Positions 4,078 to 47,975 are shown, counted from the stretch's first letter. The stretch is DNA of 55,428 nucleotides from a virus (IMGVR_UViG_3300034102_000073:1-55428), one strand, 5' to 3'. Program-made: numbers and translations. Notes: generated by a model from the sequence alone, not told the origin.

Positions 4078-6981
4078 ATGAACACGCTTGATTTTTTGAA
4101 GCGGGTTCTTCCGTCAGAGGGGTTATATTGTTCATTCACTGTAGTGGGCAAGTACCCAAAACAGGTTCACCACCAGACGATAGAAGAACTTGCTGCTGAA
4201 GTACTGACAGATAGTCAGAAGGGGCACAACACATACTTTGCGATCTCCGCTTTCAATAGCGACGAGAGCAGGGAACAAGCAAACGTCAGAGTCATAAAGA
4301 CATTTGCGCTCGACATCGACTGCGGTGAGGGTAAACCCTACCCATCGTGGAAAGAAGGGCTGCTTGTTTTATCCGACTACATCCGTGAACTGAATCTCCC
4401 CGGCCCGATGATTGTTCGATCAGGCAACGGGCTACATGTTTACTGGACTTTGACTACTGAGATGACGCCACAGGAATGGCGTCCGATTGCTACGGCGTTC
4501 AAGGCTTCTGCTGTTGCCAAGTTCAAAGAACTTGCAGAGAAGCGCGGCATCATATCGCCCACACCGAGTAAACCCTATATCGACCCTGCTGTACCTGCTG
4601 ACCATGCGCGGGTGCTACGTCCTGTTGGAACCGTTAATACCAAAGGTGGCAATACAGTCGCCCTGATTTTCGACGCGCCACCTGTTGACCCACAACACTT
4701 TGCGTCGTTCTTCCCTGTTACCTATGGCTCACCCAGTGAGCCACCACCACGACACGCATCTGGCAGCACATTGCTAGATAACCTAGCAGTCAAACAAGAT
4801 TACCCGCCATCCAATGCTGATGCTGTTCTGAGCAAATGCCAACAGATTAAATGGATGTACGAGAACCGTCACGACAAGACCAAGATAGATGAACCGATAT
4901 GGTATCGGATGTTAGGTGTTGCAGCGTTCTGCCACGACTCCCATGCAGTTGCTATTAAATGGAGCGAAGGTCATCCTGAGTTCGACCCACAAGCAACCAT
5001 AGATAAGATGGAGCAGTGGAAGCAGAAATGTACTGGCCCAACATCATGCGAGAAGATTGAAGAAGTACGCCCCGATGGGTGTAAGGGATGTAAGTTCAAA
5101 GGAAAAGTTTCCTACCCCACACAACTTGGTATTCAGTATCAGGAAGTGCAGATAGCCCCCGACGCGCTAGACACTGCTGCTTACGAAGTGGAGTTGCCCA
5201 AACCATTTAAGAGAACCAACAAAGGCATTAAGGTCAGTATTGATGACGCAGATATTGATGTATGCCCGTTTGATATTTACCCTGTTGGGTACGGCAGAGA
5301 TGAATCACTTGGCTATGAGGTCGTCCGGTATCACTGGAACCGACAACATATTGGCTGGCAACCGCTGAACCTACGCCAAGCATTTCTCACCGACGGTAGC
5401 CGTGAGTTTGCAGGAGCCATTGCAGATCAAGGCATCGTTCTTTTCAACAAGAAACAAACGGAGTACTTCCAATATATGCTGCGCACCTACATGGACAAAC
5501 TGCGGCAGCAGAGAGCCATGACGAACCTCTATTCCACAATGGGATGGAAGCATGACTACACAGAGTTCGTCATGGGTGACACCATTCTGCGCTGCAATAA
5601 AGATGGAACTATCACAGAGGAACAAGTTCTCTTATCCTCTACATCCCAACGCCTAGGGCATGACCTCTACGGTACAAGCGGAAGCCTTGCCGAGTGGCGA
5701 GAGTTCACTCGTATCATGCCGAAGGTCAACTTGTTGGGGCAGATGTTTGCGATAGGCGTCAGCCTATCGTCGCCGTTGTATGCCTTCACAGGACTTAAAT
5801 CCACAACCGTGTCGCTCTACGGGCCGACAGGCTGCGGCAAAACCCTTGCTCAGTTGTGGGGTCAGTCTGTGTGGGGCGTACCTGAGAAGCTGCATTTCGC
5901 TGCCAAGTACACACAGAACGCTGTGTTCGCACGGTTTGGTCTGTACTGCAATATGCCGCTGACCATCGACGAAACCACGATGATGGATGTCAAAGATGTT
6001 GGTGACTTCCTGTACTGGATTTCCCAAGGTCGAGACAAAGCACGACTGAACCGCAATGCGGAGGAACGTGAGTCTAAAGAGTGGCAAGCCCCTGCCATAC
6101 TATCCAACAATACATCTATGGGTTCTAAACTTGTGGCATCCGGGATGGAAACCACAGCGCAGATGGTTCGACTGTTGGAAGTTTCGTTACAAGTCCACCC
6201 GATATTTAAGTCAGGTAGCACCGCAGGTCGAGACATCTATAACTTCATCTCATCTAACTACGGTCATGCAGGTCGAGAGTTCGTGAAGTATCTGTTGCAG
6301 CTTGGGCCTGAAGGTATGAAGGCCATCGTTGATGATGCGTTCAAGACTTTCCCTAAACGCTATCACCACCACTTCACAGGTGAAGAACGCTTTTGGGAAC
6401 AAGCCATTGTACTGGCTGACCTTGCTGTTCGGCTTGCTTACGAGAACAACATCGTGGCGTTTCCACCTGAGGTCATGACGAATTGGATTCTGAATCAGAT
6501 AGGTGCGCTGCGTAAGACAGTCATTGACTATCAGAACGATGGGTTCGATATGTTGACTGAATACCTAAACGAACACGCAAACATGGCGCTGACGGTATGG
6601 CACACAGGTGACACTAAACCTGCTGTTGATATGCAGCGGTTACCCCGTGGTGAAGTACGTGCAAGGTTCGACTGCCACCGTAAAGACCACTCCTCACAGT
6701 TTGACCACGGTACAGTGATGGTTGACCGTACGCACTTCCGTAAATGGCTTGCCATGAAAGGCGTGGACTACCGTGGATTTATACGAGAGATGACTTCTGC
6801 TCAGATTGTCGTAACGCCCAAGTCTAACAAAGCCAGTCTCGGTAAGGACAGCCCAATCAAACTGCCTCAGTCCTACGTGATTGCGCTGAACCTAAGCCAC
6901 CCCCGCCTCAAGGGAATCCTAGAGGACGAGGATATGGCTATCGACAACACATTGCTAGGTCAACTCAAAGTCGTTCAATAA
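4078..6981 (+). CDS. Primase-helicase (AEP-type primase + DUF927-like ATPase/helicase)
   Basis: DIDC and SGNGLHVYW primase motifs, C..C..C cluster, Walker A GPTGCGKT, Walker B LTIDE. Confidence 0.88.
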   Translation: MNTLDFLKRVLPSEGLYCSFTVVGKYPKQVHHQTIEELAAEVLTDSQKGHNTYFAISAFNSDESREQANVRVIKTFALDIDCGEGKPYPSWKEGLLVLSDYIRELNLPGPMIVRSGNGLHVYWTLTTEMTPQEWRPIATAFKASAVAKFKELAEKRGIISPTPSKPYIDPAVPADHARVLRPVGTVNTKGGNTVALIFDAPPVDPQHFASFFPVTYGSPSEPPPRHASGSTLLDNLAVKQDYPPSNADAVLSKCQQIKWMYENRHDKTKIDEPIWYRMLGVAAFCHDSHAVAIKWSEGHPEFDPQATIDKMEQWKQKCTGPTSCEKIEEVRPDGCKGCKFKGKVSYPTQLGIQYQEVQIAPDALDTAAYEVELPKPFKRTNKGIKVSIDDADIDVCPFDIYPVGYGRDESLGYEVVRYHWNRQHIGWQPLNLRQAFLTDGSREFAGAIADQGIVLFNKKQTEYFQYMLRTYMDKLRQQRAMTNLYSTMGWKHDYTEFVMGDTILRCNKDGTITEEQVLLSSTSQRLGHDLYGTSGSLAEWREFTRIMPKVNLLGQMFAIGVSLSSPLYAFTGLKSTTVSLYGPTGCGKTLAQLWGQSVWGVPEKLHFAAKYTQNAVFARFGLYCNMPLTIDETTMMDVKDVGDFLYWISQGRDKARLNRNAEERESKEWQAPAILSNNTSMGSKLVASGMETTAQMVRLLEVSLQVHPIFKSGSTAGRDIYNFISSNYGHAGREFVKYLLQLGPEGMKAIVDDAFKTFPKRYHHHFTGEERFWEQAIVLADLAVRLAYENNIVAFPPEVMTNWILNQIGALRKTVIDYQNDGFDMLTEYLNEHANMALTVWHTGDTKPAVDMQRLPRGEVRARFDCHRKDHSSQFDHGTVMVDRTHFRKWLAMKGVDYRGFIREMTSAQIVVTPKSNKASLGKDSPIKLPQSYVIALNLSHPRLKGILEDEDMAIDNTLLGQLKVVQ

Positions 6982-9900
6982 GAAAGAATCTCAGCCGCAG
7001 ACCTAAGGTCGGTACGTGATGCCTTAGGCGCGGTACGGAGATACCGCTGTGTTGCAGGACGGATGGCCTCGGCGTATGCCTTGGCAGCGTTCTCTTGGAA
7101 GTTGGCAATGTAGAGCGGTGTGCCATACGCTGCTCTATTCCAATCTGCTACTGCTGCGTTGATGTCTCTGACTTGATCTGAGTCGCCGGACATACGAGCC
7201 TTAATCCACGCCTGTTGATACCCCGCAGAAATCTCACGCTGGTAGTCTGTCATTCTCCGCGCTGTGCGGATGAACTCGTACTGCTGCGCCGCAGCTACAG
7301 GATAGAAGCCTAAAGCACGGGTTAGATAAGTTCCTGCGGTAAGGTCTTTGGACACCACGTAACCACGGCGATCAATGATCGCACCCGCGCTGTCGTACGC
7401 CAACATGTCGCCAAGTGCGCGACCCATGGTGATTGGGTTTTCCCGCAGTACATCAACCATTGAAATCTTCTCAGAGAACGGTGCTCTAATCGCGTTGGGG
7501 ATGGTAGATGCTACTCCCCACAACATTGACAGCGATGGGCCACCTATCTCCTCAAGCTCTTTGGCTGCATTGGAACCTGCAAGAAGTAGTCCTGTGCCGG
7601 GAACGAAGTTACCGACGGATACCCGTGACGCAATGTCAGCAGGGATGAAGGAGTTCAACACGCCGCGCATGACGTATGGAGAAATCCCCGGTGCGATCTG
7701 GTCGAGGTATTTAGCAACCTCATACCGGACGCTACCTGTGATACCTAGTTTCTGCGCGAGTGTGTCCAATAAGTCCTCGGCGTCCTCTGCAAATGGGAAA
7801 GCCAGCAGACCGCCGAACAGCCAGAGTGAAACAAGCATAGCTACTTTGCCGGGCCGGTCGAGGCGGTTCAACAACTGAATAGTTGTTGTTGGATACACCT
7901 TGTACATATACAAGAAAGACTGCAACCCTGTACGCCACGCAGATGGACGGTTCATCACCGAGTACTCACCAAGTGTGAACTTCAGAGTTTCAACAGCAAA
8001 GGCACGGGCGTCAGTAGTCGCTTCTGCTGGGCTTCTTCCTGCTGCAATAGCGCGGTCGTAAGCCAGACGATAAGCTGCAAGACCTAAGCCTCTGCGTACT
8101 GCTTGCTCTGTGGAGTTGAAAGTCCACATCATGCCATCAAGAAGTTTCTGTCCTGCACCGGAGGTTACTCGACCACGAGCAGTCGCCGTCAGTGCGTTGG
8201 ACTGCGCAGGAATCATCACACCTTCACGGATTTCATCTGCGATGAACTTAGCCTCATGCGATCTCAGACCATACTTAGCTTGCAGCTTAGGGTCTTTCGC
8301 AACAGCGTCATAGAACTCAGCCGTTTCAAATCCGGGGGTATCTTGCCCGATGTTACCAAGTGAAGTCATTGTTGACTTGCGTAGGCCAACTTGGTTTAGA
8401 GCAATACCAAACGCAGCCATAGACTTGGCGAATCCGAATCCGCCACCAAAGGCAGTCTTGGAGTTATAAGTTGCCAGATAAGGGATGCCGTTGGTTACAG
8501 CGCCCACATAGTTCAACGCACCCGTAGCTATAGATAAACCCAGTTGGAACACACTGGTATACGCACGGACAGAGGAAGCGACTTCACCGCTACCAAAGTC
8601 AGACTCGTCCACGTTGCGGTTATTGTTCAGGAAGGCAAGGAGTTGAGCAGCTTCGTTGTAGTACTGGTTAGCCTTCTCGTATGTACCGCCTTCATTGGTC
8701 TTGTTGTACATGAAGGCGTAGCGGTAGTAGTCAACTTTGGCGTAGTGCTTCTCCTCCCTAGTAGCAGTGGGGTTCTTCTCCATTGCTTCCCAGTGTCTAC
8801 GCTTTGTCTCAAGTACCGATTTGCTGCCATTCCATAGCTCGTTGGATGAGCGCAGGTTACGGTTCATGATCTCCGACAAGCGTGGACGGATGATGACCTT
8901 AGCGATTGTGGACGCACGCGCCTCGACATGTTGCATGATAGCTTGCACGCCATCACTGCTGGCCCCCGGTGTGAACTCACGCTTCAAGCGGTTACGCGCA
9001 CGAGCGTTCTGTTTGGTCAACGCAACCACTACGTTTTCCATCTTCACGGGGTTCAGGGTAATACCGAACTGCCGCAAGCCACGGACAAACTCGTTAAGGT
9101 TCAGTTCGAGTGGAGCAGCGATAGAGTTAAGCGCAGCCCCCGGCATTGCGGTAAGTTTAACTTCTTGGATTGTGTACCTGCCAGAAGCCTCATCATAGAC
9201 TTCTGCTTTGTAAGTACGATCCCCGAACAAGTCTTGGTTCAGAGTACGGGCGAACGCTACGGCCTCATCCTTACCCTCGAACTGAGAGTACACCAACATG
9301 TTCTTGTAGTCTTGCTTGAGGTTGACGACTCGTCCCGCTGCGTTAGTTACAACCACACGGACTTGATGATCGCCCTTACGGTTGATCGGGGTATAGCCTG
9401 TAGCCAGAGACTTTTTAGTGAACAGATCGGCGTCATCATTCGCCACTTCAAAGGTAATGATGTCTTTAAGGCGGTTCTGGATTGTGAACTTAGCCTGCTC
9501 ATCCCCTTCAGGGAAAACCAACCGCTGCTTAAAGTCTTTGGCAAAAGCGATAGCGTCATCGGCTACAGTCTTATCGTCAAAGAAACTTGCAAATCGGTCG
9601 TAGTCCATCTGTTCGCCAAGAATGATGGCTTTGTTTACTGCCACGATAAAGTCGTTGGCTTTCTCGATACTAGCCGAGTTCAGCATTGGGTCGCCGTTCT
9701 CGTCATAGGTTTTGTCGGCAGTGTAGAACTCTTTGTACCTACGGTAGATACGCTGGAAAGCCTGACGTTCTGCGGCAGTCAGAGCATACTTACCTTCTGC
9801 GTTTGGTTTAGTGATGTCAGCGATCTCACGGAAGGCCAAGTCTTGATCTTGTAGGAAGCTGCTGTATCTTGCCCACAAGAGTTTGACTTCAACTTCTTTA

Positions 9901-12900
9901 ACGGATTCACGAGCGCGTAGGTAGCCCTTCCAAACTTTGCTATCTTCGGTTAGGTCTTTGATCCCCGGCACGTTGACCTTCTCTTTGACTACTTCGCCTT
10001 TGTCGTTGAGATACTCGACATCATAGGAGTAACCATTTTTAGCTTCGGCGAAGGTCAGCTTACCTAGCTCGAACAGACGATCAACTTCAGTCTGCCCATT
10101 CTCATTTACGGTCAGCGCCAACTGTCCTTTGTCATCGACATAGAACAGCGGGGTTTTACCTAGCTTACGAACGTCACCGACAGTGGCTACCTTATAGCGC
10201 AGTCCACCGTACAGCAACTTGTTGACCTGATCTAGTTCTTCCGTGGTGATGCCACCTACTTCACCAATACCGAGTTTGACTGCGCGATTAAGCAGCACAC
10301 CAAGACGTTCTTTCTCTGTGACCTTGATGTTCATCGCAAGGTCTTTACCGGAATTCAGGAGGTCGTTAATAGCAGACAAGCCTGCGTTCTCACGGGCGCG
10401 GAAGTTGGTCAGGCTAAAGAACTGAGTCACGAACTTGTCTGCCGCAAACGAGAACTTACCGGTCTTATCAATGAAGCGTTGTACTGCCTCGTTGATGGAC
10501 ATTGGAATACCAGCGGCATCGTCCATCATTAGACCAGCCATCAAGTTATCCCTACGTAGGTCGCCTGCCATTGCGAAACGTCCAGACCCGTCAATATCCT
10601 GCCCATGCACCATACTTACCATACGCTGTGCAACATCTTTGGCGTCGAAGAACTGCGAGGTCTGTCCATTGCGGGTGTAAGCACGGGCTTGGTTGACAAA
10701 GAACCTAGCCGTTTCGTCACCGAATTTAATACCCAACTTGTTGAGCGCACCCTTGATAGAGTTCCAGATACGCGCCAGCAGGCTGGAATCCAACTGTGCT
10801 GCAAAGTCCGCGAGGTATTCCTCAGTAGCTTCTGCTTTAGACTGGTCGGTGACCGACATAGCAGCGTCTACATATGACTGAATAGCAGGGCTGAACTTGT
10901 AGATTTGCTCCATCAGAGCGTTGAACTGCTTCTCTCCGATCAGGCTGCGCAGTCCGTTGTGACCAATGGCTTCGTGAGCCAGCACGAAATTCAACTGCTG
11001 CTCAGTTGCTACGCGGTCAGCAAACACAATAACCGTGTCGCCACCAAAGGAGTACGCCACAGCCGATACGTTATCGAAGTCACCTTGCGTACGAGCCGCA
11101 GCAGCACGGGCGTAGAGTTCAGGGTTACGCGCCTTGAGATCAGCTTGATTCTTGTAGATGAATGTACGTGGCTTGACTGCTAGGCGAGACAGGAAATTCG
11201 CCACCAACATCTTGATCTTACCCATTGGCACTGGGTTGGTGATCGGCGTGCCGTCATCACGCTCAAAGCGTCCGGTGTCATCACGGTTGTTAGTGCCATA
11301 GGCGTTCCAATCATCGAGAGAAAACGGCGAACGGTACTCACCCTTGGCTTGGCCTTCCTCAGAAATCTTCACATCGGGATCAACTTCTCCGCGATCTTCT
11401 GCCTCAAAGTTACGTACCTCAGTATCCGATACCTCACGGACATAGACGCGTAGTTTGCCATTGACCACACGGGTCTTTGGAGTACCGTCGTCAAAGTAAG
11501 CAGAGATAGGATTGCCGCCCGGTGTTTCCCAGTCCTCAAGTTCAGCAGCCTGTACGTCTGCATACAGTTTCTTCAGCGCATTGATGGCGTCTTGCTGCTG
11601 CTTAGTGGTGTACGCCATACGGTTGGAGTTCAAACGCTGAATCTCGTCGAACAACTTAGTGGCAGGATTGCGTTTGGTGAAGTCGTTAGCCCCGTTGTCT
11701 TTTGCTTCTGTACCACCACGCTTGAGTTTCTTCAGCGTGTCCTTAGGGAAGTTGTCAGGACGTAGCTGCCCACCATCAAGATACAGTTGGGCGTCGTTTA
11801 CGCTGATACCAGTAAGGCGGGTCTTGATCTGCGGGAGTAATTCGTTTTCCTGCGCAAACTTAAACCATGGCTTTTCCATGCCTTTGTTTTCACCACGGGT
11901 GTACACGGCTTCGATAGTCTGAAGGGTATTGACCTCGTTCAGCACTATTTGTTTGATGAGCGCACGCTCAGTACTGCTCCAGTTCTTACTAGACAGATAG
12001 TCACGAGCGCGGGCTACAGCTTCAGCAAGATTAGTTTCTTCCGGCGAGAAGTATGCGTATCTAACCACAGTGGTTAGCGCATCAGCTTTACCTCTGATCG
12101 TCGTAGCTTCCTCGACGTTATTGATCTCATCGTTGACTACGCTGAGCGGAGTTATCTCGCCTTTGAGTAGACCTTCTTCTTTCTGCTCGTCAATGTATGA
12201 CTCAGTTAGAAGATTGGCCTCAGCCATAGTGGCCTTGCCACGAGTGACAAGGTTGCGCCACGACTGCTGGTGAACTGGGTTTAGCTTGTCGAACGTCGGT
12301 GCGTTATCAGGCTTTTTATCCTCCCACTGTTCTTCAGCAGTGACAGGCTCAGGCTCAGCTTTTTTTGGCTCGGCCTTTTTCTCAACCTTACCTTTCTTCA
12401 AGGTAGCAGCTTTTGGAGCAGGAACAATCTCTTGCTCTTTGCCAGCCTTGACTACATCTTTCCGAACAGCTTCTTGCTTATCTTCTTGCTTCTTTGCTTT
12501 GAGGGCTTGACCTTTTCCGGCAGTTTTCGGTTGTCCGGTGTCTCCTTCTCCCACCTTTTCGCCATCTCTGGTTCGTTTGCGTGCATCCAGCGGCGTTGGC
12601 TTTCGCTCTTGAACGGCATTTGTTTCCTCCCCTTTATAGACAGTTCGGACTGTCGTGTCTCCAATTTGGTCTAACAAAAATGCACGGTGATGCCCGTCGT
12701 TAATATAAAAAGAACCATCGGGCAATGCTGTTACGACTATTGGGTTTTGCGCAGTAAAGTCACGCAGACGTTGTTGTGCTTCGGGGTCTGCCTTAAACGC
12801 ATCGACCATCTCCCGCATGGTCATATATTCATCAATGTTCTTCATCCCCGCGACATTAGTCAGTATGTCGAATACTTGGGATTCAGTAACACCCTGAGTA

Positions 12901-15551
12901 CCAATCGCACCATTAGGACGCTTTATATTTGCAATAAGAAAATCAAACGATCCTTCTGCTGGCTTTACTTCTTGTTTCTTTCCTCGCTTCAAACCCCGCA
13001 TATTTTGCGCAGCACGCGCCGCCGCAATAGTATTTGCCGTGACTGGTGCGCCTGTCGGTGGAATCTGGGTAGTGCCTTGCTGCGTAGTCGGTACAACTTG
13101 CTGCCGCGTGCCTGCACTCTTTAGCGCTGCTACTGTAGGCTCGCCTTTTTGCGTGAACAACGCCATCTGTCCCATACGACGAAGATCGGCAGGAGTAACG
13201 GGTGTTACAGGTGCAACAGGCTCAGGTAATTGTGTACCCACACCACGGCGCAAACCTTCGGCACGAGAAGGACGAGGCAAATCACGGGGTCTAAATAACG
13301 GCAACTGCTGAGGGGTACGCTCACGAGGCGCAGTCATCGGCAGTGAAGGTGTCTGCGGTGTGCTTTCCTGCGGGAAAGCCAAATCCAGTTGGCGCTGGTT
13401 CTGTGCTGCTTGCGCTAAACGAGCTATCTCTGCCTCGCGCTGCGCAGCGGCAGCAGCCTCAGCTTGCTGAAACGCAGCCTGCCGTGCCTGTTGGTCTTGC
13501 AACTGCTGGAGTTGACCAGCCATCTGATTGTTGAACGGAGCCTGAGGTGCAGGTGGAGCGAACTGTAATGCACCCTGACGAGGATCAGAAGTAGGACTAC
13601 CAAGTGGCTGCGCATTAGGGATAATACCGAGTTGCCGTGCATAAGCGATTGCCTCAGGGTCTTCATTCAGTAAACCAATCTGAAGGTCTTTGACGCTCTG
13701 ATACCGAACTTGCCCACCCATGCGCGATGCCAATTCCTGCGCAGAGATGCTACCGCCAAATACATCGAGTACACCTTGCGAACCTTGCGTTGCACCGGGC
13801 GGGACGTTACCTTGTTGCCGTAGCATTTGGTCGGGGTAAGCCACGCCTTGCGGGGTGACCATCATTGTCGGGCCACCGACAGGACTTACCGGCGACACAG
13901 GGCCACCTAGCATTGGCGGTGGCGGTGGCGGCAGGGCAGGGAATTCCCTAGTAAATGCACCACCCTGCATAGGTGCAGCGGGCGGCGTTGGCGGCGGGCT
14001 AGTCGGAACAACAGCCCCGCCAGTAGTAGGCGGAGATGGGTCTTTGCCGCTGTCTAGAAGGTTTACTGCTAACTTGTTGTCACGAAGGTTGCTCAGGCCA
14101 CCAATGGGGCCACCGACACCAAAGCCAGCGGCAAAGGCGTTCAGCAATCGGCGACGCCCTTCAGGAGAATCAATGTTTACGTCTTTGTTGGCGTAGATAC
14201 CGAGCGATTCTTGGAAGGCTTCAGTCGCACCTTCTGCCAAACCACCAACGGCTGTACCCGTGGCGAGCCGCCGCCCGACTTCAAGGCTCTTACCTCCAAG
14301 GGTTTTTATATCACCTAGTGCGCCGCGTGCCATCCATTGAGGAGTACCACCCACACCGAAGATACGACTTGCAGCCAAGAACTCAGCGGCAGATTCAGCC
14401 AGACCGTAGGGGATGCCCAAAGCCACAGCCATCAGGCGATCACCTTCACCGTCGCCGCTCTCTAGGGTTTCTCCGTAGATGTCTGAGATACCAGTGGCGA
14501 TGTTCTGTCCAGTGGTTGCAAGCGTAGCCCCGCCAATCTGACCGGCACGCCTGTAGTACTGAGACAGAGTGTTCTCCGCAGCTTGACGTAGTGCAGCAGC
14601 TTCTTGCTGGATAGCAAGCCGTTCTGCTTGGTTCTTTGCTTGTGCAGCCAGCACCGCATCGTAGGGAATCAGGGCGCGAGAAGCCGATGGGTTCTTAATT
14701 GCCGCTGCTGCGGTAATACCAGCAGCTTCTTTGAGAAGTTTTGTTTCCGCTGCATCAAGAGCTTCACCGCGCAGATGCTTCTGCGCTGCCAGCATCACAC
14801 CCTTCTTGAATGTCTCCTTACCAGTCAGCGCCATAATTGCGCCGCCTGTAGCAGTTACAGGGTTCGGGCCACCACCGGCTGCGCCACCTGCGAGGAAGCC
14901 GACAGCACCAGTCACAATAGACTCAATAAGATTCGGGCCTTGTTGGGCAAGGTTAGCGGCGAACCAGTCGAACAACCCACGGTCACCGGATGTAACACCC
15001 ATGCCGTAGTCTTTCTTGTCGCCGATACCTGTGAACTCCCGCTGGTATACCTGATTACGGGACAAGTCTTGGATTTGCTGTTCGACTACGTTCCTGCCAA
15101 CCTTCTCCATACCAAGGAACTGTAGGCCGTAGCCACCAAGCAACTGAAGATTATCAACTCCGATACCGAAGTTCTTCTTCATCAACTGCCATGTAGTTGG
15201 GTCAGCGATGCTCTTAGCATGGGATAGATAGCCACTCACCGATACAGGACGCCAATCACCATCAGGCAATGGAGTACGCCCTCCATCAGGGCGCATATTC
15301 TTCAGTGACTCTACAACCGCTGTGTCGTTGTCAGCGTCGAACGTAGTACCGTTGACAAACAATCTGTTGGTTGACGGGCTGTATGCGACCGTAGCAGCAG
15401 GAATAAATGGTTGGAAAGCCGGAGCTTGAGGCCGTGGAGCAGCAGCATCAAGAGCGGCAGAATACCGCCCAAGATCAATACCCCCCATACCACTGCCCGG
15501 TTGGGGCGTCAGTCCGTAAGGAAGTCCTACCGTCAGTGCTTGGTCAGCCAT
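6975..15551 (-). CDS. Giant (2858 aa) internal virion/ejection protein, polyvalent: ParB-like domain and zincin metallopeptidase domain
   Basis: Last gene of the morphogenesis operon; INDGHHRA ParB-like motif; LAHEAIGH...EEYLA zincin motif; GAGG RBS. Confidence 0.85.
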   Translation of the reverse strand: MADQALTVGLPYGLTPQPGSGMGGIDLGRYSAALDAAAPRPQAPAFQPFIPAATVAYSPSTNRLFVNGTTFDADNDTAVVESLKNMRPDGGRTPLPDGDWRPVSVSGYLSHAKSIADPTTWQLMKKNFGIGVDNLQLLGGYGLQFLGMEKVGRNVVEQQIQDLSRNQVYQREFTGIGDKKDYGMGVTSGDRGLFDWFAANLAQQGPNLIESIVTGAVGFLAGGAAGGGPNPVTATGGAIMALTGKETFKKGVMLAAQKHLRGEALDAAETKLLKEAAGITAAAAIKNPSASRALIPYDAVLAAQAKNQAERLAIQQEAAALRQAAENTLSQYYRRAGQIGGATLATTGQNIATGISDIYGETLESGDGEGDRLMAVALGIPYGLAESAAEFLAASRIFGVGGTPQWMARGALGDIKTLGGKSLEVGRRLATGTAVGGLAEGATEAFQESLGIYANKDVNIDSPEGRRRLLNAFAAGFGVGGPIGGLSNLRDNKLAVNLLDSGKDPSPPTTGGAVVPTSPPPTPPAAPMQGGAFTREFPALPPPPPPMLGGPVSPVSPVGGPTMMVTPQGVAYPDQMLRQQGNVPPGATQGSQGVLDVFGGSISAQELASRMGGQVRYQSVKDLQIGLLNEDPEAIAYARQLGIIPNAQPLGSPTSDPRQGALQFAPPAPQAPFNNQMAGQLQQLQDQQARQAAFQQAEAAAAAQREAEIARLAQAAQNQRQLDLAFPQESTPQTPSLPMTAPRERTPQQLPLFRPRDLPRPSRAEGLRRGVGTQLPEPVAPVTPVTPADLRRMGQMALFTQKGEPTVAALKSAGTRQQVVPTTQQGTTQIPPTGAPVTANTIAAARAAQNMRGLKRGKKQEVKPAEGSFDFLIANIKRPNGAIGTQGVTESQVFDILTNVAGMKNIDEYMTMREMVDAFKADPEAQQRLRDFTAQNPIVVTALPDGSFYINDGHHRAFLLDQIGDTTVRTVYKGEETNAVQERKPTPLDARKRTRDGEKVGEGDTGQPKTAGKGQALKAKKQEDKQEAVRKDVVKAGKEQEIVPAPKAATLKKGKVEKKAEPKKAEPEPVTAEEQWEDKKPDNAPTFDKLNPVHQQSWRNLVTRGKATMAEANLLTESYIDEQKEEGLLKGEITPLSVVNDEINNVEEATTIRGKADALTTVVRYAYFSPEETNLAEAVARARDYLSSKNWSSTERALIKQIVLNEVNTLQTIEAVYTRGENKGMEKPWFKFAQENELLPQIKTRLTGISVNDAQLYLDGGQLRPDNFPKDTLKKLKRGGTEAKDNGANDFTKRNPATKLFDEIQRLNSNRMAYTTKQQQDAINALKKLYADVQAAELEDWETPGGNPISAYFDDGTPKTRVVNGKLRVYVREVSDTEVRNFEAEDRGEVDPDVKISEEGQAKGEYRSPFSLDDWNAYGTNNRDDTGRFERDDGTPITNPVPMGKIKMLVANFLSRLAVKPRTFIYKNQADLKARNPELYARAAAARTQGDFDNVSAVAYSFGGDTVIVFADRVATEQQLNFVLAHEAIGHNGLRSLIGEKQFNALMEQIYKFSPAIQSYVDAAMSVTDQSKAEATEEYLADFAAQLDSSLLARIWNSIKGALNKLGIKFGDETARFFVNQARAYTRNGQTSQFFDAKDVAQRMVSMVHGQDIDGSGRFAMAGDLRRDNLMAGLMMDDAAGIPMSINEAVQRFIDKTGKFSFAADKFVTQFFSLTNFRARENAGLSAINDLLNSGKDLAMNIKVTEKERLGVLLNRAVKLGIGEVGGITTEELDQVNKLLYGGLRYKVATVGDVRKLGKTPLFYVDDKGQLALTVNENGQTEVDRLFELGKLTFAEAKNGYSYDVEYLNDKGEVVKEKVNVPGIKDLTEDSKVWKGYLRARESVKEVEVKLLWARYSSFLQDQDLAFREIADITKPNAEGKYALTAAERQAFQRIYRRYKEFYTADKTYDENGDPMLNSASIEKANDFIVAVNKAIILGEQMDYDRFASFFDDKTVADDAIAFAKDFKQRLVFPEGDEQAKFTIQNRLKDIITFEVANDDADLFTKKSLATGYTPINRKGDHQVRVVVTNAAGRVVNLKQDYKNMLVYSQFEGKDEAVAFARTLNQDLFGDRTYKAEVYDEASGRYTIQEVKLTAMPGAALNSIAAPLELNLNEFVRGLRQFGITLNPVKMENVVVALTKQNARARNRLKREFTPGASSDGVQAIMQHVEARASTIAKVIIRPRLSEIMNRNLRSSNELWNGSKSVLETKRRHWEAMEKNPTATREEKHYAKVDYYRYAFMYNKTNEGGTYEKANQYYNEAAQLLAFLNNNRNVDESDFGSGEVASSVRAYTSVFQLGLSIATGALNYVGAVTNGIPYLATYNSKTAFGGGFGFAKSMAAFGIALNQVGLRKSTMTSLGNIGQDTPGFETAEFYDAVAKDPKLQAKYGLRSHEAKFIADEIREGVMIPAQSNALTATARGRVTSGAGQKLLDGMMWTFNSTEQAVRRGLGLAAYRLAYDRAIAAGRSPAEATTDARAFAVETLKFTLGEYSVMNRPSAWRTGLQSFLYMYKVYPTTTIQLLNRLDRPGKVAMLVSLWLFGGLLAFPFAEDAEDLLDTLAQKLGITGSVRYEVAKYLDQIAPGISPYVMRGVLNSFIPADIASRVSVGNFVPGTGLLLAGSNAAKELEEIGGPSLSMLWGVASTIPNAIRAPFSEKISMVDVLRENPITMGRALGDMLAYDSAGAIIDRRGYVVSKDLTAGTYLTRALGFYPVAAAQQYEFIRTARRMTDYQREISAGYQQAWIKARMSGDSDQVRDINAAVADWNRAAYGTPLYIANFQENAAKAYAEAIRPATQRYLRTAPKASRTDLRSAAEILSY
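12452..12619 (-). CDS. Nested out-of-frame small basic protein (55 aa, MPFKSESQRRWMHANEPEMAKRWEKETP...)
   Basis: GGGGAGG RBS 6 nt before ATG; +1 frame relative to the giant ORF; resembles, from memory, small stand-alone phage proteins beginning MPFKS.AQRR. Confidence 0.7.
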   Translation of the reverse strand: MPFKSESQRRWMHANEPEMAKRWEKETPDNRKLPEKVKPSKQRSKKISKKLFGKM

Positions 15552-15563
15552 TTATGCCTCTAC

Positions 15564-18461
15564 TTATTTTCTATTGACATTTAGTCCGCGATTCATTTGG
15601 GTAGGTAGAACAGTTATGTTCTCCGCTGAAAACTTACCGTCTGTACCCATCTTAGCCGGGTTCATATCGAACCTAGCAACATAGTTTCCATCTTTTGAGA
15701 AGGCCACCAAGCTTTCACCGCCGTCAGGGTTGATAACTTTCTGAGGGCTATCGAATCCTTGCATCTCCATAGCCTTCTTAATAAGCTCCGTCTGGCTCTT
15801 AAAGGATTCTACTTTTAGTGAATTGATTCCTTTTACCAATTCGACCTGAACCAACTTAGCGGTTTCTAACTGCGTCTCAAACTGTTTACTATACAGCGCA
15901 GCTTCAGCATCCTGCTTTCTCTGCCGGTATGACTGGTCAATAGTCCGCATAGCCATGTCTGCAAGTGTAGCCTTATCAAGTACATTGGCGACACGTAACT
16001 CTCCGTCTACCGGCATATACAGATTAAATTTACCATCTGTTCGAGGTTGAATACGAATTTCCTGTCCAGAATACCAAGACCAGATACGCTCAAGCCGCTG
16101 GGGATTGTTTGCATACTGGAAGTCATGTAGTGCTTGGTACGTGATAGACATACCAAGATTGTTGTCCACTCCTTCCAAACCTTTCTGGATAGCTTGGTCA
16201 GTGGTAACCATGTCTTGCTGATACTTCAACCTAGATTGGTTGATCTGCCCGTCCAGAGTACGAATCTGATCTAGCTTACTCTGAGCTTCTTTAATCAACC
16301 CATTACGGCGTGCAACTTCAGCTTCCATAGCCAACTGCTGACGTTGCTGCGAAGCAAGTCCCAATTCATTTTTATAGAATTGTTCGATGGCAGCACGAGA
16401 TTGCTGGTACTGCTGTATAGCCGTGTTACGCTGATAGAGCAGTTTGTTTGTCTCGAAGTTGTGCTGCTCAGGAGTCATCGAGAGCGCAACGCGCACTCGC
16501 TTCAAAACCTCATCAGACTCCAAATCACCAGCGGGTTTAGATACTCCAGCAACTTGCGCAGGAGCTTCTGCCGCTGGCTGATCTTGGCGCACACCCGGTG
16601 AAACTTGAACATTCTGGGCATCGGGGCGAACTACATAACGACCAGTGTTGTCTACCTGAACTCTAGCTGTACGTCGTCCATACAAATCTTGATACTGCTT
16701 CGGCTGCAAGTGTAGCCCCATCGGGTCTTTAGCGACTGATGGATACAAGTCCATAAGCCTGCCGGTAAACTCGACGTTGTTTGTTTGCGCCAATTGCGAT
16801 AGGAAATCGTTCTGCCCAGTTGTCGGATTCTTTTGTGTCCCCGGCCCAGTTCCGAAGATCACAGGAACACCGCCTTTAGATTTGATAAAGGCGATCTGTT
16901 GTTCTACAGCAGTACGCTCAGCAGGGTTGTTAGGCAAACCTGTACCAAGATAAATGGTCACGCCGTTAAGATCATTCTTAGCCGCGTATTCTTTCAGCAT
17001 TTTCAGGACAGCCGTAGGGCTTGCACCTGTTTTGTAGGAGCCATCTAACTTGTTTGCCTTCGCAAACCCTTCAGCCAGACTATCACCTATAGCTATGACC
17101 TTACCACTTGGGGCAGCCGCAGCTTGCTTGGTGGTTTGTGGAGCAGCTTGTGGCACACCAGTTTTTGCAAGCTGGTTATATTGCGCGATGTAGTTTTTGG
17201 TTTCAGTAGGTAGCGCATTGGGATTGCTACCCTTCTTGATCCAGTTGTCTACATTGCCCGGCCCCCAGTTATATGCAGCCAATGCGTAGTAGACATTGTT
17301 ATCGTAACGATTCAACATCGCTGCAAAATAGTCCCGCCCAAACCGACGGTTCTCCTCAGGAGAATTATTTTGCAGAGGCTTAACACCGAAGCCGGGGTCT
17401 TTACCAGTCGCACGCATGATCTGCATTGCGCCCTGTGCGCCTTTAGGACTGACCGCGTTAACATTTCCACGACTTTCAATGTACTCAATGATCGGTACAA
17501 CCTGTTCTACTACCGAGGAAGTTTTAGTTGCTGCTCGACGCGAGTCACGAATAGCGCCTTCTTTTTTGAACGCGTTTACAAATCCAACAGGGTCAATATC
17601 TGCTATCGGTAAAGCGTTAGGGTTCTGGTTGAAGTAGTCAATAGCTTCTTTGCTATTGAACCAGTCCAGTGCCTCAGTAATAGCCGCACGTTTGTTTGCT
17701 TCCTGCGCGGTATCAGTGAAGTATCCTTTGATCGCGCCGAACACATTACCCGCTAGGCCGTAGTCACCCGTAGCAAGTTTGTTGCGGATATTTTCACGGG
17801 CACGATTAACTGCTAACTGTGCGTTTTGTGTAGCTGCATTGCGGTTAAATCCGGCGAGATTCGGGTCAACCTTTGTATACCCCGGAATGTTGGCATCAAT
17901 CTCTCCTACACGGCTTCTACCATTAGGAATGAAATCCGGTACGGTTAGTGAAGTGCCTTTACCCTGTGCATTTGCGTAGATTTTTTCACGGATAGCAGCA
18001 GGAAATTTACCATTCTGTGCTTCGTAATTTTGTAGGTACGTAGTCGCATCTATTGGTACTTGGTCAGAACCAGCAACCGCAGGTTCAGGAACACGATTTA
18101 CAGGCTGAGTAGCGTCTTTCCAAGTACTGACTTTGCCATCAGACGCAGGAGCGGGCACTGGAACCGGGGCAGGTTCGCGCACTACATAGGGAGTACGGAA
18201 GGTAGAAGCATCCCCCGGCATGGGTTTGTTCGTAACGTCAAACACCGAGGGCGGCATTGTGAAACCTACCGGCTGTAGCCCCGCTACATTATCTTTAACT
18301 GTAGGTAAGCGTTGCTGTAGCTCCGCACGTTGCCGCTCTGCGCGATAGAAGTCGTCAGTTTCTTGAACCGCACCCAACATCTGCGGGATACGGCGCATGG
18401 TTTGAAACTGCGCATCTTCATTCGCAGGGATTGATCTAAAGAACGCATCAAGTCCAGCCAT
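15564..18461 (-). CDS. Internal virion protein with SLT lytic transglycosylase and SGNH/GDSL hydrolase domains
   Basis: IESRGN..AVSPKGAQGAMQIM, ALAAYNWGPG, ETKNY; then IAIGDSL...DPMGLHL; AAGGAG RBS. Confidence 0.88.
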   Translation of the reverse strand: MAGLDAFFRSIPANEDAQFQTMRRIPQMLGAVQETDDFYRAERQRAELQQRLPTVKDNVAGLQPVGFTMPPSVFDVTNKPMPGDASTFRTPYVVREPAPVPVPAPASDGKVSTWKDATQPVNRVPEPAVAGSDQVPIDATTYLQNYEAQNGKFPAAIREKIYANAQGKGTSLTVPDFIPNGRSRVGEIDANIPGYTKVDPNLAGFNRNAATQNAQLAVNRARENIRNKLATGDYGLAGNVFGAIKGYFTDTAQEANKRAAITEALDWFNSKEAIDYFNQNPNALPIADIDPVGFVNAFKKEGAIRDSRRAATKTSSVVEQVVPIIEYIESRGNVNAVSPKGAQGAMQIMRATGKDPGFGVKPLQNNSPEENRRFGRDYFAAMLNRYDNNVYYALAAYNWGPGNVDNWIKKGSNPNALPTETKNYIAQYNQLAKTGVPQAAPQTTKQAAAAPSGKVIAIGDSLAEGFAKANKLDGSYKTGASPTAVLKMLKEYAAKNDLNGVTIYLGTGLPNNPAERTAVEQQIAFIKSKGGVPVIFGTGPGTQKNPTTGQNDFLSQLAQTNNVEFTGRLMDLYPSVAKDPMGLHLQPKQYQDLYGRRTARVQVDNTGRYVVRPDAQNVQVSPGVRQDQPAAEAPAQVAGVSKPAGDLESDEVLKRVRVALSMTPEQHNFETNKLLYQRNTAIQQYQQSRAAIEQFYKNELGLASQQRQQLAMEAEVARRNGLIKEAQSKLDQIRTLDGQINQSRLKYQQDMVTTDQAIQKGLEGVDNNLGMSITYQALHDFQYANNPQRLERIWSWYSGQEIRIQPRTDGKFNLYMPVDGELRVANVLDKATLADMAMRTIDQSYRQRKQDAEAALYSKQFETQLETAKLVQVELVKGINSLKVESFKSQTELIKKAMEMQGFDSPQKVINPDGGESLVAFSKDGNYVARFDMNPAKMGTDGKFSAENITVLPTQMNRGLNVNRK

Positions 18462-18473
18462 GCTGTTTCTCCT

Positions 18474-19934
18474 TTAACCGCGATAGATGTCGCGAGTATC
18501 TTTCGACAACAGCGGGTATGTCATGTAGGAAGCCATCTTTGTTGCACCCTGACCGGCAAGCGCACGAGACGTATCAAGTTCACCATACATAGACTGCAAC
18601 TCTTTCAGTCCGGCTTGCATACCGCGAGGCGCGGTGGGATACATGCTCTGCGCACGCGATAGAGCTTGGTTACGCATATCCAAACCGCCTGCATAGCCAC
18701 GGTCATATGCGCTGCCCACGTTTGCAGTGAGGCCGAGAGTTGCACGGCGACGCTCAGCAGCGCCATAGCCGGGGCTACGCAATCCTGCAAAACGGTCATC
18801 GCGGAATCCTTCTGCCAGTGCTTTTGCACCACGAACTTGAGCTTCGTTAGAAGCCTGCTGCGCCCAGTATTCAGGGTTGATAGCTTTAGCCTGCGTTACA
18901 AAATCGTTGTACTCAGCCAGCTTAGCTTGGTACGCTGCTTGGTCTTGACCTTCAAGACGTTTGAGTTCTGCTTGATACTCGTCGATACGTTTTTGCTGTT
19001 CCTTACCTGCTTGCGACGCATAGATGCCGCCAATTACTTGTGGAGTCATCATCAAGGTCATGTCTGCAAGTTTGGTAGGGTCAGTTACCCGACCCTTTAG
19101 CGCAGCCCAATACCCCGGATCAGTAGCAGCAGCGGGAGTAACAGCATTAGCACCACTTGTCGCTGTGCTGGCAACACCGGTATTAACACCGCCACCACCA
19201 GATACATACCCCGGTAGCTGGCCTGCATTTGCTCCGCTATAGTACGTTCCTCCATCAACTGCTGATGTAGCAGGATTTACAGCACCAGATGATCCTGAGA
19301 CGTTAGCATATTGCGGAGGGTTCGTCGTCGTCGAAAGGGTATTACCAGCGTTGCTTGTGTTTGTAGCTTGGAGATTCTGCGATGCACCCGCGTTGGGGTA
19401 CTGCGCATTTGCTAACTGTGCGTTAGTAACATCATCTACACCACTAGCAGCAGGCCCACCAAAGAAGCCGGTCTGGCTTTGACCAGCATTAGTTACTGTA
19501 CCAGTTGGGCCAAAGAAACCGGCGTTTTGGGTAGTTGCTTGCCCAAATAGCGGGTTATTCGTGGAGCCAAACCCGCCCATACCTTGCGTAAATCCACCGC
19601 CAATACCGCCCATCAGCGCACTACGACCGACATCTCCGCCAGTTAGCGCCGCTCCAGCGGCTCCAAGTACAGCACCAGTAGCGGCGGAGGCCAGCGTACC
19701 GGAGATAGCGCCAGCCATAATACTGGAGCCAAATACCGTGGTTGCAACCATAGGAGCAATAAACGGAACCGCGATAGCAACGACCACACCAAGTAGTCCT
19801 TTAAGGCCACCGCCACCGCCCATCTCAGACTCACCGCGAATAGCCGCAGCAATAGGATTCAATTTACCGGGGAACATATCGCGTGTTCCGTACGTGACAA
19901 ACTCAATGTTGCCAAAGGTGATTTGCTTAGTCAT
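18474..19934 (-). CDS. Putative DNA ejection/pilot protein
   Basis: Gly/Ala-rich with N-terminal hydrophobic helices and C-terminal coiled region; sits between acetyltransferase-like and SLT genes; GGAGG RBS. Confidence 0.7.
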   Translation of the reverse strand: MTKQITFGNIEFVTYGTRDMFPGKLNPIAAAIRGESEMGGGGGLKGLLGVVVAIAVPFIAPMVATTVFGSSIMAGAISGTLASAATGAVLGAAGAALTGGDVGRSALMGGIGGGFTQGMGGFGSTNNPLFGQATTQNAGFFGPTGTVTNAGQSQTGFFGGPAASGVDDVTNAQLANAQYPNAGASQNLQATNTSNAGNTLSTTTNPPQYANVSGSSGAVNPATSAVDGGTYYSGANAGQLPGYVSGGGGVNTGVASTATSGANAVTPAAATDPGYWAALKGRVTDPTKLADMTLMMTPQVIGGIYASQAGKEQQKRIDEYQAELKRLEGQDQAAYQAKLAEYNDFVTQAKAINPEYWAQQASNEAQVRGAKALAEGFRDDRFAGLRSPGYGAAERRRATLGLTANVGSAYDRGYAGGLDMRNQALSRAQSMYPTAPRGMQAGLKELQSMYGELDTSRALAGQGATKMASYMTYPLLSKDTRDIYRG

Positions 19935-20431
19935 TTTGTGACCTCCGTTAGTTCAAGCCTCATGTGGGAGTAAACCTGCTTAAATCCAAAACGAGTAATC
20001 ATGCGTTGCATTGCAGGATTTACCCACCCATCAATTACACGTACTCCGTTCATGTAAGCCCATCCGCAAAATTCGCGCCAGAACTTACGATGAAACACAG
20101 CTAAATCTGTACCGCCTAATGCTAGGATATTCAGTGCTGGAAGCCGTGGGTACTGTACGACTTCCGCAGCTAGGGCTAACCGGACATCTAGATTAGGGTT
20201 TGTACCAGTCTTATCATTGGTGAGGACGAAGATAAAAGCAGCGCGGTTCAGCGCCATGACTTTTATATCTTCAATTTCCAACTCACCGTGCATCGACTCT
20301 TTTACGCAACGATCCAACAAAGGCTTAGCTAGAGGCCAAAAGCGATCAATCAGCCGAGCATCGGCGAGCATAAGAGGCTCGTACTCACGCAACGGAGCGT
20401 ATTGAACTTGCTCGGCTGGTTGACTGTGCAT
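19931..20431 (-). CDS. GNAT-like virion assembly protein (positional analogue of T7 gp13)
   Basis: VVQYPRLPALNILALGG...W..RFGF pattern; precedes ejection genes. Confidence 0.6.
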   Translation of the reverse strand: MHSQPAEQVQYAPLREYEPLMLADARLIDRFWPLAKPLLDRCVKESMHGELEIEDIKVMALNRAAFIFVLTNDKTGTNPNLDVRLALAAEVVQYPRLPALNILALGGTDLAVFHRKFWREFCGWAYMNGVRVIDGWVNPAMQRMITRFGFKQVYSHMRLELTEVTK

Positions 20432-21417
20432 CATGACTTAGACTTTCCTTCGTCTTTGTCACCCTTCTTGTACTTGTCCAGCAACATATCAAAGAAGTCA
20501 GTACCTTTTGCTTCGACAACATGCTTGGGGATGACATACTCACCGCCGGAAACACGAATCTGGATGTCGTCCGCACGGCCCGTCTTGTCCTTAGTAGGCG
20601 ACCATTCTTCCGGTATGTCTCCACCCATATTAAAGCCCGGACGGAATGTATCGTTGAATGTCTGAACTCGTCCGCCATTGGCTAACTGTTGCATTGGGCC
20701 ACTAGCCTGAGCGCCTTGTAACTCTTGCTGCACCGCAGCACCAGCCATCAAAAGTGCAAACACAATCCCTTGGTCATACTCGGCAGGCAAGTCTTGTTCA
20801 GTAGCCAGACCGCGCTGAATAGCAAGCTGACGTAGGCGTGGGTACAACGCAGGGTTCTGAGCCGCAGCAGTCGCAAGCTGGACAGCGGTATTTAGCTGCT
20901 CCATAGTCAACTCACCAGACTGGATAGCTTGCATAATTACTTGCCGCATTTGACTAATAGCTTGCGGATTATTTTGCAGAACCCTCTCAATCTCGTTTTC
21001 CATCTCCTCGTAGCCAGCAGGTTCTCCGCCACCCATCATCGGCTGTCCACCCATCATAGGCTGTCCACCCATCATCGGCTGCCCCATCGGGCCTACTTGC
21101 CCACCGTCCGCGTACGTAGGCTGCATACGGAAGTCAAGTACAGGGTAATTAGGATTAGAAGCTACTGTCCCTGTCGGGGCTGTCTGAAGGGCTTGCATGT
21201 TGATACCGCCGGTAGAAGCGCCACCGCCACCGCCGCCCATCAATCCTTGCCCCTGCTGGTTAATTAGATTGGCTAAGGACGCCGGGAGCGCCGTTGTAGC
21301 CGGAGCCATACCGGAACCAAAGCCGGGGCTACGCATACCTGCTGCTGGGCTAAAACCATCTTGCAGACCCAAGTTCTGCATCCATGCTTGCCCGCCGTTT
21401 TGTTGTCCTCGTGACAT
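20431..21417 (-). CDS. Gln/Gly/Met-rich internal virion protein
   Basis: YADGG, LANGG, FNMGG motifs and C-terminal TGRADDIQIRVSGGEYVIP; GQPMMG tandem repeats. Confidence 0.7.
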   Translation of the reverse strand: MSRGQQNGGQAWMQNLGLQDGFSPAAGMRSPGFGSGMAPATTALPASLANLINQQGQGLMGGGGGGASTGGINMQALQTAPTGTVASNPNYPVLDFRMQPTYADGGQVGPMGQPMMGGQPMMGGQPMMGGGEPAGYEEMENEIERVLQNNPQAISQMRQVIMQAIQSGELTMEQLNTAVQLATAAAQNPALYPRLRQLAIQRGLATEQDLPAEYDQGIVFALLMAGAAVQQELQGAQASGPMQQLANGGRVQTFNDTFRPGFNMGGDIPEEWSPTKDKTGRADDIQIRVSGGEYVIPKHVVEAKGTDFFDMLLDKYKKGDKDEGKSKS

Positions 21418-25023: not shown

Positions 25024-25024
25024 G

Positions 25025-47974: not shown

Positions 47975-47975
47975 T

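Follow-up and report, generated by a model that had tools for sequence, protein, structure and literature searches.

What does a predicted esterase do directly behind a lytic transglycosylase in a phage protein? The question is raised by a gene in IMGVR_UViG_3300034102_000073, an uncultured virus whose record comprises 55,428 bases, has direct terminal repeats and is rated 100% complete. This whole stretch is the window analysed here. The gene encodes a protein of 965 amino acids in which an SLT-type lytic transglycosylase domain is followed by a short linker and a second domain with GDSL-like motifs. A sequence-only reading of the window proposed that the second domain is an SGNH esterase, and that the ejected protein may remove O-acetyl groups from the cell wall so that its own transglycosylase can open a channel for DNA entry. 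Judged by its conservation and its predicted fold, the second domain is a divergent but genuine member of the SGNH hydrolase superfamily with an irregular block V. It recurs next to muramidase-type enzymes in many other proteins.

The domain behind the transglycosylase

The SLT domain was placed by the sequence-only reading at approximately 17180-17495. This is borne out by a match to Pfam PF01464 at residues 309-412 (17226-17537), which covers positions 4-109 of the 117-position profile and scores 72 bits where the cut-off is 21.3 (E 3.9e-20). PF01464 is the sole Pfam family found in the protein. In a search of the genome the domain scores 76.8 bits, and no second SLT match was found there. 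The region contains E329-S330, GAMQIM (344-349) and AAYNWGPG (395-402), which we take to be the E-S, GxMQ and AYNxG motifs of family-1 lytic transglycosylases, with E329 as the catalytic glutamate. On the basis of its sequence, the SLT domain appears intact.

The linker between the two domains reads LAKTGVPQAAPQTTKQAAAAPSG. It is followed by the three blocks from which the SGNH domain was originally recognised, and all three are present: VIAIGDSLAEG at residues 455-465 (17067-17099), IYLGTG at 503-508 (16938-16955) and KDPMGLHLQPKQY at 578-590 (16692-16730). The last block has the spacing D-x-x-x-x-H (Asp579...His584), as opposed to the canonical D-x-x-H.

Homologues were searched for with residues 445-612 (168 amino acids). 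A word-based search gave 25 proteins at E <= 1e-3 among 847 candidates, with 55-100% identity. An exhaustive HMMER search of 1.84 billion cluster representatives gave 141 at E <= 1e-3, 23 at <= 1e-10 and 14 at <= 1e-30. The conservation alignment has 156 rows and consists of the window domain and 155 of the 156 proteins retrieved; P0137 was left out, as the profile did not match it. Gly459 is kept in 154 rows, Asp460 and Ser461 in 153 each, Gly479 in 151, Gly508 in all 156, Asn511 in 154, Asn551 in 153 and His584 in 148. The near-invariant Asn551 (16809-16811, minus strand), found in the motif PTTGQN, lies outside the four classical blocks and aligns with an Asn in Escherichia coli TesA.

An AlphaFold2 model of the domain, built on a 43-row alignment (A1), has a mean predicted local distance difference test score (pLDDT) of 92.2 and a predicted template modelling score of 0.86. 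At its start, where the model takes in the end of the linker, the mean pLDDT over 10 residues is 61. A Foldseek search against the PDB with this model gave 61 matches at E <= 0.001, the best being 3mil (E 1.5e-6). The natural proteins among the matches listed are all SGNH/GDSL hydrolases, and the remaining three are designed scaffolds. The top match in VIA-align, whose alignments extend over 140-150 residues, is 4rw0 (Z 14.8, root-mean-square deviation 2.7, 149 aligned).

A comparison of the predicted structure with Ape1 and OatA-C was suggested by the sequence-only reading. Staphylococcus aureus OatA-C (6vjp) is indeed matched closely (Z 14.2, root-mean-square deviation 2.6, 141 of 153 aligned), as is Campylobacter jejuni PatB (8tlb; Z 13.9), whose 19% identity is among the highest listed; PatB of Neisseria gonorrhoeae follows with Z 12.8. 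OatA-C does not stand above other esterases, as the scores of E. coli TesA (Z 13.8), an acetyl-xylan esterase and sialate O-acetylesterases are no more than 1 Z away from those of OatA-C and PatB. Structures of Ape1 are absent among the Foldseek and VIA-align matches listed, which has no bearing either way. The model settles the predicted SGNH fold of the domain, with its three alpha/beta/alpha layers, not its subfamily.

For the window's own SGNH domain, neither Pfam (at E <= 1) nor NCBIfam gave a match, and PHROGs match only the SLT part of the 965-amino-acid protein. Among the A1 relatives, PF13472 is found in 14 of 43 (best 2.2e-5) and PF00657 in two of 43. When the A1 profile was compared with PDB sequences, the best hit was 4ppy_A, a putative acylhydrolase (E 0.029), with the GDS and DGVHP blocks aligned; the other rows were chance matches to bromodomains. 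An hhalign comparison with TesA (gene from L007) covered 124 columns, with blocks I, II, III and V in register, and gave E 2.3e-4 at a probability of only 44%. TesA, which has the canonical D-x-x-H and acts on acyl chains, is 12-18% identical to the domain. In the ESM Atlas the domain adjoins GDSL-lipase clusters, including several of small viral proteins (129-140 amino acids), and automatic annotations name some of the relatives 'SGNH hydrolase domain containing protein'. The SGNH assignment is upheld by the confident model, the natural structures matched and the conserved Ser, Gly, Asn and His. Chance motif matches in the low-complexity linker were considered as well, and are ruled out by the conservation and the confident fold.

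We compared the domain with the Ape esterases (CE3-like O-acetylpeptidoglycan esterases), for which the signature motifs GDS(H/F) and Dx(V/T)H have been described (PMC1199599). These motifs are not found in the window domain, which has GDSL and D-P-M-G-L-H. Ape1 also carries an added CBM35-type module (10.1101/2021.09.23.461501). The secondary structure of our model contains neither an extra beta-sandwich nor a CBM35-type module, and consists of a single core of approximately 145 residues between two linkers. By its motifs and its model, the SGNH domain is placed outside the Ape family.

Partners and carriers of the SGNH domain

A survey for fusions of SLT and SGNH domains, also suggested by the sequence-only reading, showed that the window protein is one of many. 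We scanned the 156 retrieved relatives (P0003-P0158, of which P0003-P0026 are closely related among themselves) with Pfam at E <= 1e-4. SLT is present in 45 of them. Phage_lysozyme2 is present in 14, one of which has Amidase_2 too, Peptidase_M23 in three and Hydrolase_2 in two (one just below the cut-off), whereas Phage_lysozyme, VgrG3-like_C, Transglycosylas (below the cut-off) and VanY occur once each. In sum, 68 of the 156 relatives carry a wall-degrading domain, which is glycan-cutting in 64 of the 68 if Hydrolase_2 is counted as such, presumably correctly, by analogy with SleB. The peptidoglycan-binding domain PG_binding_1 is present in five of the 156. Among 14 further proteins tested with PHROGs, lysin-type regions were found in three (P0030, P0038 and P0046). 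The SGNH domain itself falls inside phrog_19273, a family of giant proteins without an assigned function.

The order of the domains varies. The SGNH domain follows the muramidase in the 965-amino-acid protein, P0010 and P0070, and precedes it in P0023, P0027, P0064 and P0091; the two are usually adjacent. Short two-domain forms exist as well (P0070, 275 amino acids; P0051, 363; P0141, 365). The SGNH domain is also found in giant 'polyvalent' proteins of up to 4849 amino acids (P0027, P0028, P0085, P0113, P0125 and P0140), where its neighbours include ART-PolyVal, LPD3, LPD38, MuF_C, NADAR and PBECR1 domains.

The C-terminal module of the 965-amino-acid protein is common to nine other proteins (P0159-P0167) with 24-47% identity, three of which share the N-terminus too. 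Profile searches found the SGNH domain in none of the nine, even at E <= 10. A similar situation was observed in type IV secretion. In brief, P0049 (572 amino acids) is a type IV secretion transglycosylase with SLT at residues 30-132, SGNH at 163-329 and the VirB5-like T4SS family PF07996 at 374-538. Its source record names Neisseria animaloris; an organism name was obtained for this one of 20 relatives looked up. A homologue on Acinetobacter plasmids (415 amino acids; L009, 1435-2682, plus strand) aligns to residues 23-161 (56%) and 323-562 (40%) of P0049 and lacks just the SGNH part. Based on these sequence comparisons, the SGNH domain behaves as an optional cassette.

A search of 72,556 plasmids with the SGNH part of P0049 gave no match. 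The best of its matches in 50,697 phage records is in a Helicobacter pametensis prophage (48.9% identity, E 2e-34). This protein of 892 amino acids (L010, 3435-6113, plus strand) is encoded in the tape-measure position, and its SGNH domain directly precedes Phage_lysozyme at residues 674-800. P0068, of equal length and with its domains at the same positions, is probably this protein or one almost identical to it. The other four matching phage records are two of Synechococcus phage S-H38, one of Salmonella phage SeF6a and an unannotated E. coli phage record. The SeF6a member is a stand-alone protein of 141 amino acids (L006, 3968-4393, plus strand; phrog_14008), annotated as 'putative lipase' and encoded between the baseplate tail-tube-cap and wedge genes. 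In BFVD, the best structural match of the window domain is an S-H38 protein with 27% identity, which is annotated as a Peptidase M15C protein.

Possible role in genome entry

We suggest, at a probability of slightly below one half, that the 965-amino-acid protein is an internal, ejected virion protein of a podovirus and that its SGNH domain removes the 6-O-acetyl group of N-acetylmuramic acid (MurNAc), licensing its own SLT domain. Once the phage has adsorbed, the internal proteins would exit the capsid and extend across the envelope, and the SGNH domain, then in the periplasm, would hydrolyse the MurNAc 6-O-acetyl ester, with Ser461 attacking and His584 acting as the base. Gly479 and Asn511 would stabilise the oxyanion, and Asp579 might support His584 from a bulged loop. 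The tethered SLT domain would then form 1,6-anhydro-MurNAc and open a local gap in the wall at the site of genome entry. The two linkers, flexible by their low pLDDT, may let both domains sweep the same patch of wall. Because the formation of 1,6-anhydro-MurNAc requires a free hydroxyl at C6 of MurNAc, de-O-acetylation would have to come first. In line with this, MurNAc 6-O-acetylation is described as precluding the action of lytic transglycosylases and hindering that of lysozymes (PMC6174289).

That the protein is packaged and ejected we infer solely from the T7-like gene order. On the minus strand, genes for the large terminase, the portal and the major head protein are followed by three tail-fibre genes, a phrog_511 'internal virion protein' gene, open reading frames of 328, 167 and 486 amino acids, the SLT-SGNH gene and an open reading frame of 2858 amino acids. 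The order around the SLT-SGNH gene is kept in two related viral contigs of approximately 55 kb (L002 and L004), with the giant open reading frame following in both.

T7 gp16 is an internal virion protein with a lytic transglycosylase domain. Like T7 gp16 and proteins of the IVP-D type, the window protein has a muralytic domain in a large protein that is encoded after the tail genes and beside other large internal proteins. It differs from T7 gp16 in that the transglycosylase is central, not N-terminal, and in the second, predicted catalytic domain. We found no sequence match to T7 proteins for it. Muralytic domains in internal virion proteins have been described across podoviruses (PMC4819975).

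The nearest functional precedent is non-covalent. Ape1 of Neisseria and Campylobacter is an SGNH-fold serine esterase for which the same logic has been proposed, de-O-acetylation so that a transglycosylase can act. Ape1 of Neisseria meningitidis requires LtgA for optimal function, the two being esterase and transglycosylase partners (PMC7083599). Whereas Ape1 is a separate periplasmic housekeeping protein, the esterase is here fused to the transglycosylase and encoded by a phage. The C-terminal SGNH domains of OatA and PatB are likewise compact and among the best structural matches, and their substrate is the same MurNAc hydroxyl. These domains transfer acetyl groups that a membrane partner or a fused AT3 domain supplies, and the window protein has no AT3. 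Since their scores are tied with those of unrelated esterases, we do not assign the domain to OatA or PatB.

The carriers of the domain fit de-O-acetylation in part. Many Neisseria species are listed as O-acetylating and Helicobacter pylori is named (PMC6174289); the word 'Acinetobacter' does not occur in the text of that source. The Neisseria and Helicobacter carriers come from genera with known O-acetylation, and the Acinetobacter homologue is without the cassette; both points fit the idea. This genus-level pattern consists of a handful of cases and is no test. The fold, the fusion to SLT, the glycan-cutting partners and these carriers are thus in favour of the role put forward by the sequence-only reading, whereas the structure does not single out peptidoglycan esterases.

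Several observations weigh against this role. Structure does not separate Ape, PatB and OatA from lipases or other esterases, as the Z scores are tied. In 88 of the 156 relatives, Pfam recognised no wall enzyme. The bias towards glycan-cutting partners is weak evidence since phage wall enzymes are mostly glycosidases anyway and the counts have no background control; the persistent adjacency in many architectures is the stronger evidence of the two. The distant members in Salmonella and E. coli phages are at odds with de-O-acetylation, as E. coli, Pseudomonas aeruginosa and some Enterobacteriaceae are listed as having no peptidoglycan O-acetylation (PMC6174289). The portal of the window is closest to those of Rhizobium phages (34.6% identity) and of HMO-2011-type marine podoviruses (approximately 26%), and the Rhizobium and marine alpha-proteobacteria infected by these nearest cultured phages are not known to us to O-acetylate their peptidoglycan. 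A scan of genome contigs for clues to the host of the window virus gave a single partial match, in a metagenome-assembled genome. A profile search of 401 genomes of the same phylum gave no matches; it had no positive control and shows nothing.

The catalytic acid is a further point against. A terminal D..(.)H block was part of the original description of the domain. Its His584 is conserved as expected, but the block does not have the canonical spacing, and in the hhalign comparison with TesA the canonical Asp column (His-3) is filled by Met581, with Asp579 two residues further upstream at His-5. Across the 156 rows, an acid is present at His-3 in 89 and only at His-5 in 42, among them this protein and all of its close relatives. 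Of the remainder, two have it only at His-4, 15 have none within five residues and eight have no aligned His (mostly truncated sequences). From these counts, the Ser-His pair and the oxyanion hole appear strongly constrained, while the acid wanders.

We think it unlikely that the SGNH domain is an esterase for another envelope ester or glycan, such as O-antigen, capsule, exopolysaccharide or periplasmic polymers, in which case its link to peptidoglycan would be merely spatial. Known phage SGNH domains are mostly found in receptor-binding proteins. The BFVD matches include tail spike or fibre proteins of Pectobacterium and Klebsiella phages, and the available literature on Acinetobacter and Klebsiella phage fibres points the same way. 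Such tailspike and fibre esterases are described as virion-borne, external receptor-binding proteins that act on capsule or O-antigen, whereas the window domain is encoded in the internal-protein module, outside the three tail-fibre genes, and is flanked by SLT instead of beta-helix or fibre modules. An esterase of this kind would agree with sialate O-acetylesterase and acetyl-xylan esterase scoring equal to OatA and PatB, and with the stand-alone SeF6a member, which lies in a baseplate block and whose host family is partly non-O-acetylating. It agrees less well with PG_binding_1 and the wall hydrolases that accompany so many of the relatives.

Rather improbable, in our view, is a lipase or (lyso)phospholipase that acts on membrane lipids or lipoprotein esters and so helps the ejected proteins to cross the envelope. 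TesA, the reference SGNH hydrolase (thioesterase I/protease I/lysophospholipase L1), aligns block for block with the domain and is a close structural match (see above), and the neighbouring genes resemble those for envelope-spanning proteins. Relatives are labelled 'putative lipase' or 'GDSL-like lipase' in databases, but these names are automatic. The domain is also a minimal SGNH core, and its recurrent partners are wall glycosidases and a peptidoglycan-binding domain, with no membrane-active modules.

It is very improbable that the domain is an acetyltransferase of the PatB or OatA-C type, acetylating the wall after entry, for example against superinfecting phages or host autolysins. Both PatB proteins and OatA-C are among the structure matches, but such an enzyme would oppose the fused transglycosylase, and block II keeps its Gly, presumably a mark of typical hydrolases. 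Pfam found neither AT3 nor MBOAT in the 965-amino-acid protein and 10 proteins of its neighbourhood and the structural module, the part of the genome searched, and PatB and OatA-C are described as receiving their acetyl group from a membrane MBOAT or AT3 partner (PMC12148441). Finally, a non-catalytic glycan-binding domain or structural spacer in an ejection protein would explain Met581 in place of the triad Asp in this protein and its close relatives, but is hardly to be expected when Ser, Gly, Asn and His are near-invariant in all 156 rows, its own subfamily included, and when the acid, variable in position across the family, is conserved at His-5 in 42 of them.

Gene neighbourhood and significance

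The coordinates of the gene, its modules and its two flanking genes are given in Table 1. The 486-amino-acid neighbour probably belongs to the same internal-protein module as the SLT-SGNH gene. A fold search with the C-terminal module gave the T7 tail-complex chain 7ey7_A as the top match (Z 10.8, 99 aligned). As this match is tied with generic helical hairpins (phasin, ESCRT-III and chemoreceptor hairpins), we draw no conclusion about the fold of the module.

Table 1. Location of the SLT-SGNH gene, its modules, the putative catalytic residues and the flanking genes in the window.
Feature	Position	Strand	Basis and remarks
Gene for the 965-amino-acid SLT-SGNH protein (P0001), stop codon included	15564..18461	-	Open reading frame list and translation; the related viral contigs L002 and L004 have it in matching surroundings
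Conserved N-terminal module, residues 1-85	18207..18461	-	75% identity to P0009 (residues 2-84); 32-35% to P0159-P0161 (without SGNH domain)
SLT lytic transglycosylase domain, residues ~309-430	17172..17537	-	Pfam PF01464 and motifs
Ala/Pro/Gln/Thr-rich linker, 22 residues, about 431-452	17106..17171	-	Sequence
Small SGNH-fold hydrolase domain (predicted), ~145 residues, 453-597	16671..17105	-	AlphaFold2 model, Foldseek and VIA-align matches, 141 representatives, PF13472 in 14/43 relatives
Ser461 codon, putative nucleophile, block I (GDSL, residues 459-462)	17079..17081	-	Conservation; aligns with GDSL block of E. coli TesA
Gly479 codon, block II, putative oxyanion-hole glycine	17025..17027	-	Conservation; aligns with TesA block II
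Asn511 codon, block III (LGTGLPN)	16929..16931	-	Conservation; aligns with TesA GGND block
Block V, D579-P-M-G-L-H584, His584 putative general base	16710..16727	-	Conservation; hhalign
Second linker, residues 598-648, predicted disordered	16518..16670	-	C-terminal model, pLDDT 26-41 in its first 49 residues
C-terminal module, residues 649-965, long helical hairpin and small beta-sheet parts (predicted)	15567..16517	-	AlphaFold2 model, pLDDT 75.2
Upstream neighbour, 486 amino acids, Gly/Ala/Ser/Thr/Asn-rich, hydrophobic Gly/Ala-rich stretch ~45-105	18474..19934	-	No Pfam or PHROG family; position kept in L002 and L004
Downstream giant protein, 2858 amino acids, ends the module	6975..15551	-	C-terminus matches phrog_11358 and phrog_21376 (function unassigned); no Pfam at E <= 0.01

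Two strings stand out in the 2858-amino-acid protein: AHEAIGH, of the HExxH type, and DGHHR, which is reminiscent of ParB/sulfiredoxin-type domains. Besides the 486-amino-acid neighbour, which is of low complexity, the internal-protein block encodes another low-complexity protein with GGQPMM repeats (20431-21417, minus strand), for which no family match was found. The three tail-fibre genes (26054-27313, 27628-28626 and 29007-30944, all on the minus strand) encode a common N-terminal module of approximately 100 residues (phrog_8469) and diverge downstream of it, and they look like a set of exchangeable receptor-binding proteins. The tail-fibre protein of 645 amino acids also matches RCC1-repeat ('regulator of chromosome condensation') PHROGs. 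In the replication arm, the plus strand encodes an HNH-endonuclease-family protein (47820-49151; phrog_1314, E 7.7e-103) and an HslV-family peptidase (51990-52418; phrog_1040).

A holin-like gene (phrog_3427) is located at 24502-25047 on the minus strand. No separate endolysin was recognised among the 38 open reading frames scanned with PHROGs, which covered those of 120 amino acids or more. The SLT domain may also serve lysis, or the neighbouring protein of 176 amino acids (25025-25555, minus strand) may be an unrecognised lysin.

In our literature search, which covered few subscription journals, neither a phage fusion of transglycosylase and SGNH domains nor a phage enzyme for peptidoglycan de-O-acetylation was encountered. 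In a study of Curtobacterium prophages it is speculated that predicted SGNH 'depolymerases' could remove acetyl groups from peptidoglycan or polysaccharide (PMC9862828). The parts of the protein are known and their arrangement is undescribed; the role proposed for it is plausible.

Studies of peptidoglycan O-acetylation deal with its protective effect against host lysozyme and with its restraint of the cell's own lytic transglycosylases. How it affects phage entry and secretion machines has, to our knowledge, hardly been explored. For the family as a whole we speculate, more tentatively, that a broad and mostly unannotated miniature SGNH family of at least 141 clusters at 50% identity could be a portable 'de-O-acetylation cassette', placed beside muramidases in polyvalent proteins, in type IV secretion systems, in phages and in the tails of prophages. 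Peptidoglycan O-acetylation would then be a barrier to envelope-crossing machines, and an anti-phage and anti-conjugation defence to which the cassette would be the specific answer.

Should the substrate be a different one, what is left is a phage internal protein with a divergent accessory esterase. The SGNH core of approximately 145 residues would in itself be a compact enzyme for biochemical study, and modules with the two domains could help in choosing or designing lysins against lysozyme-resistant walls. If the proposed role is true, the fusion of an esterase to a transglycosylase would be a direct sign that O-acetylation hinders genome delivery and that mobile elements are answering it.

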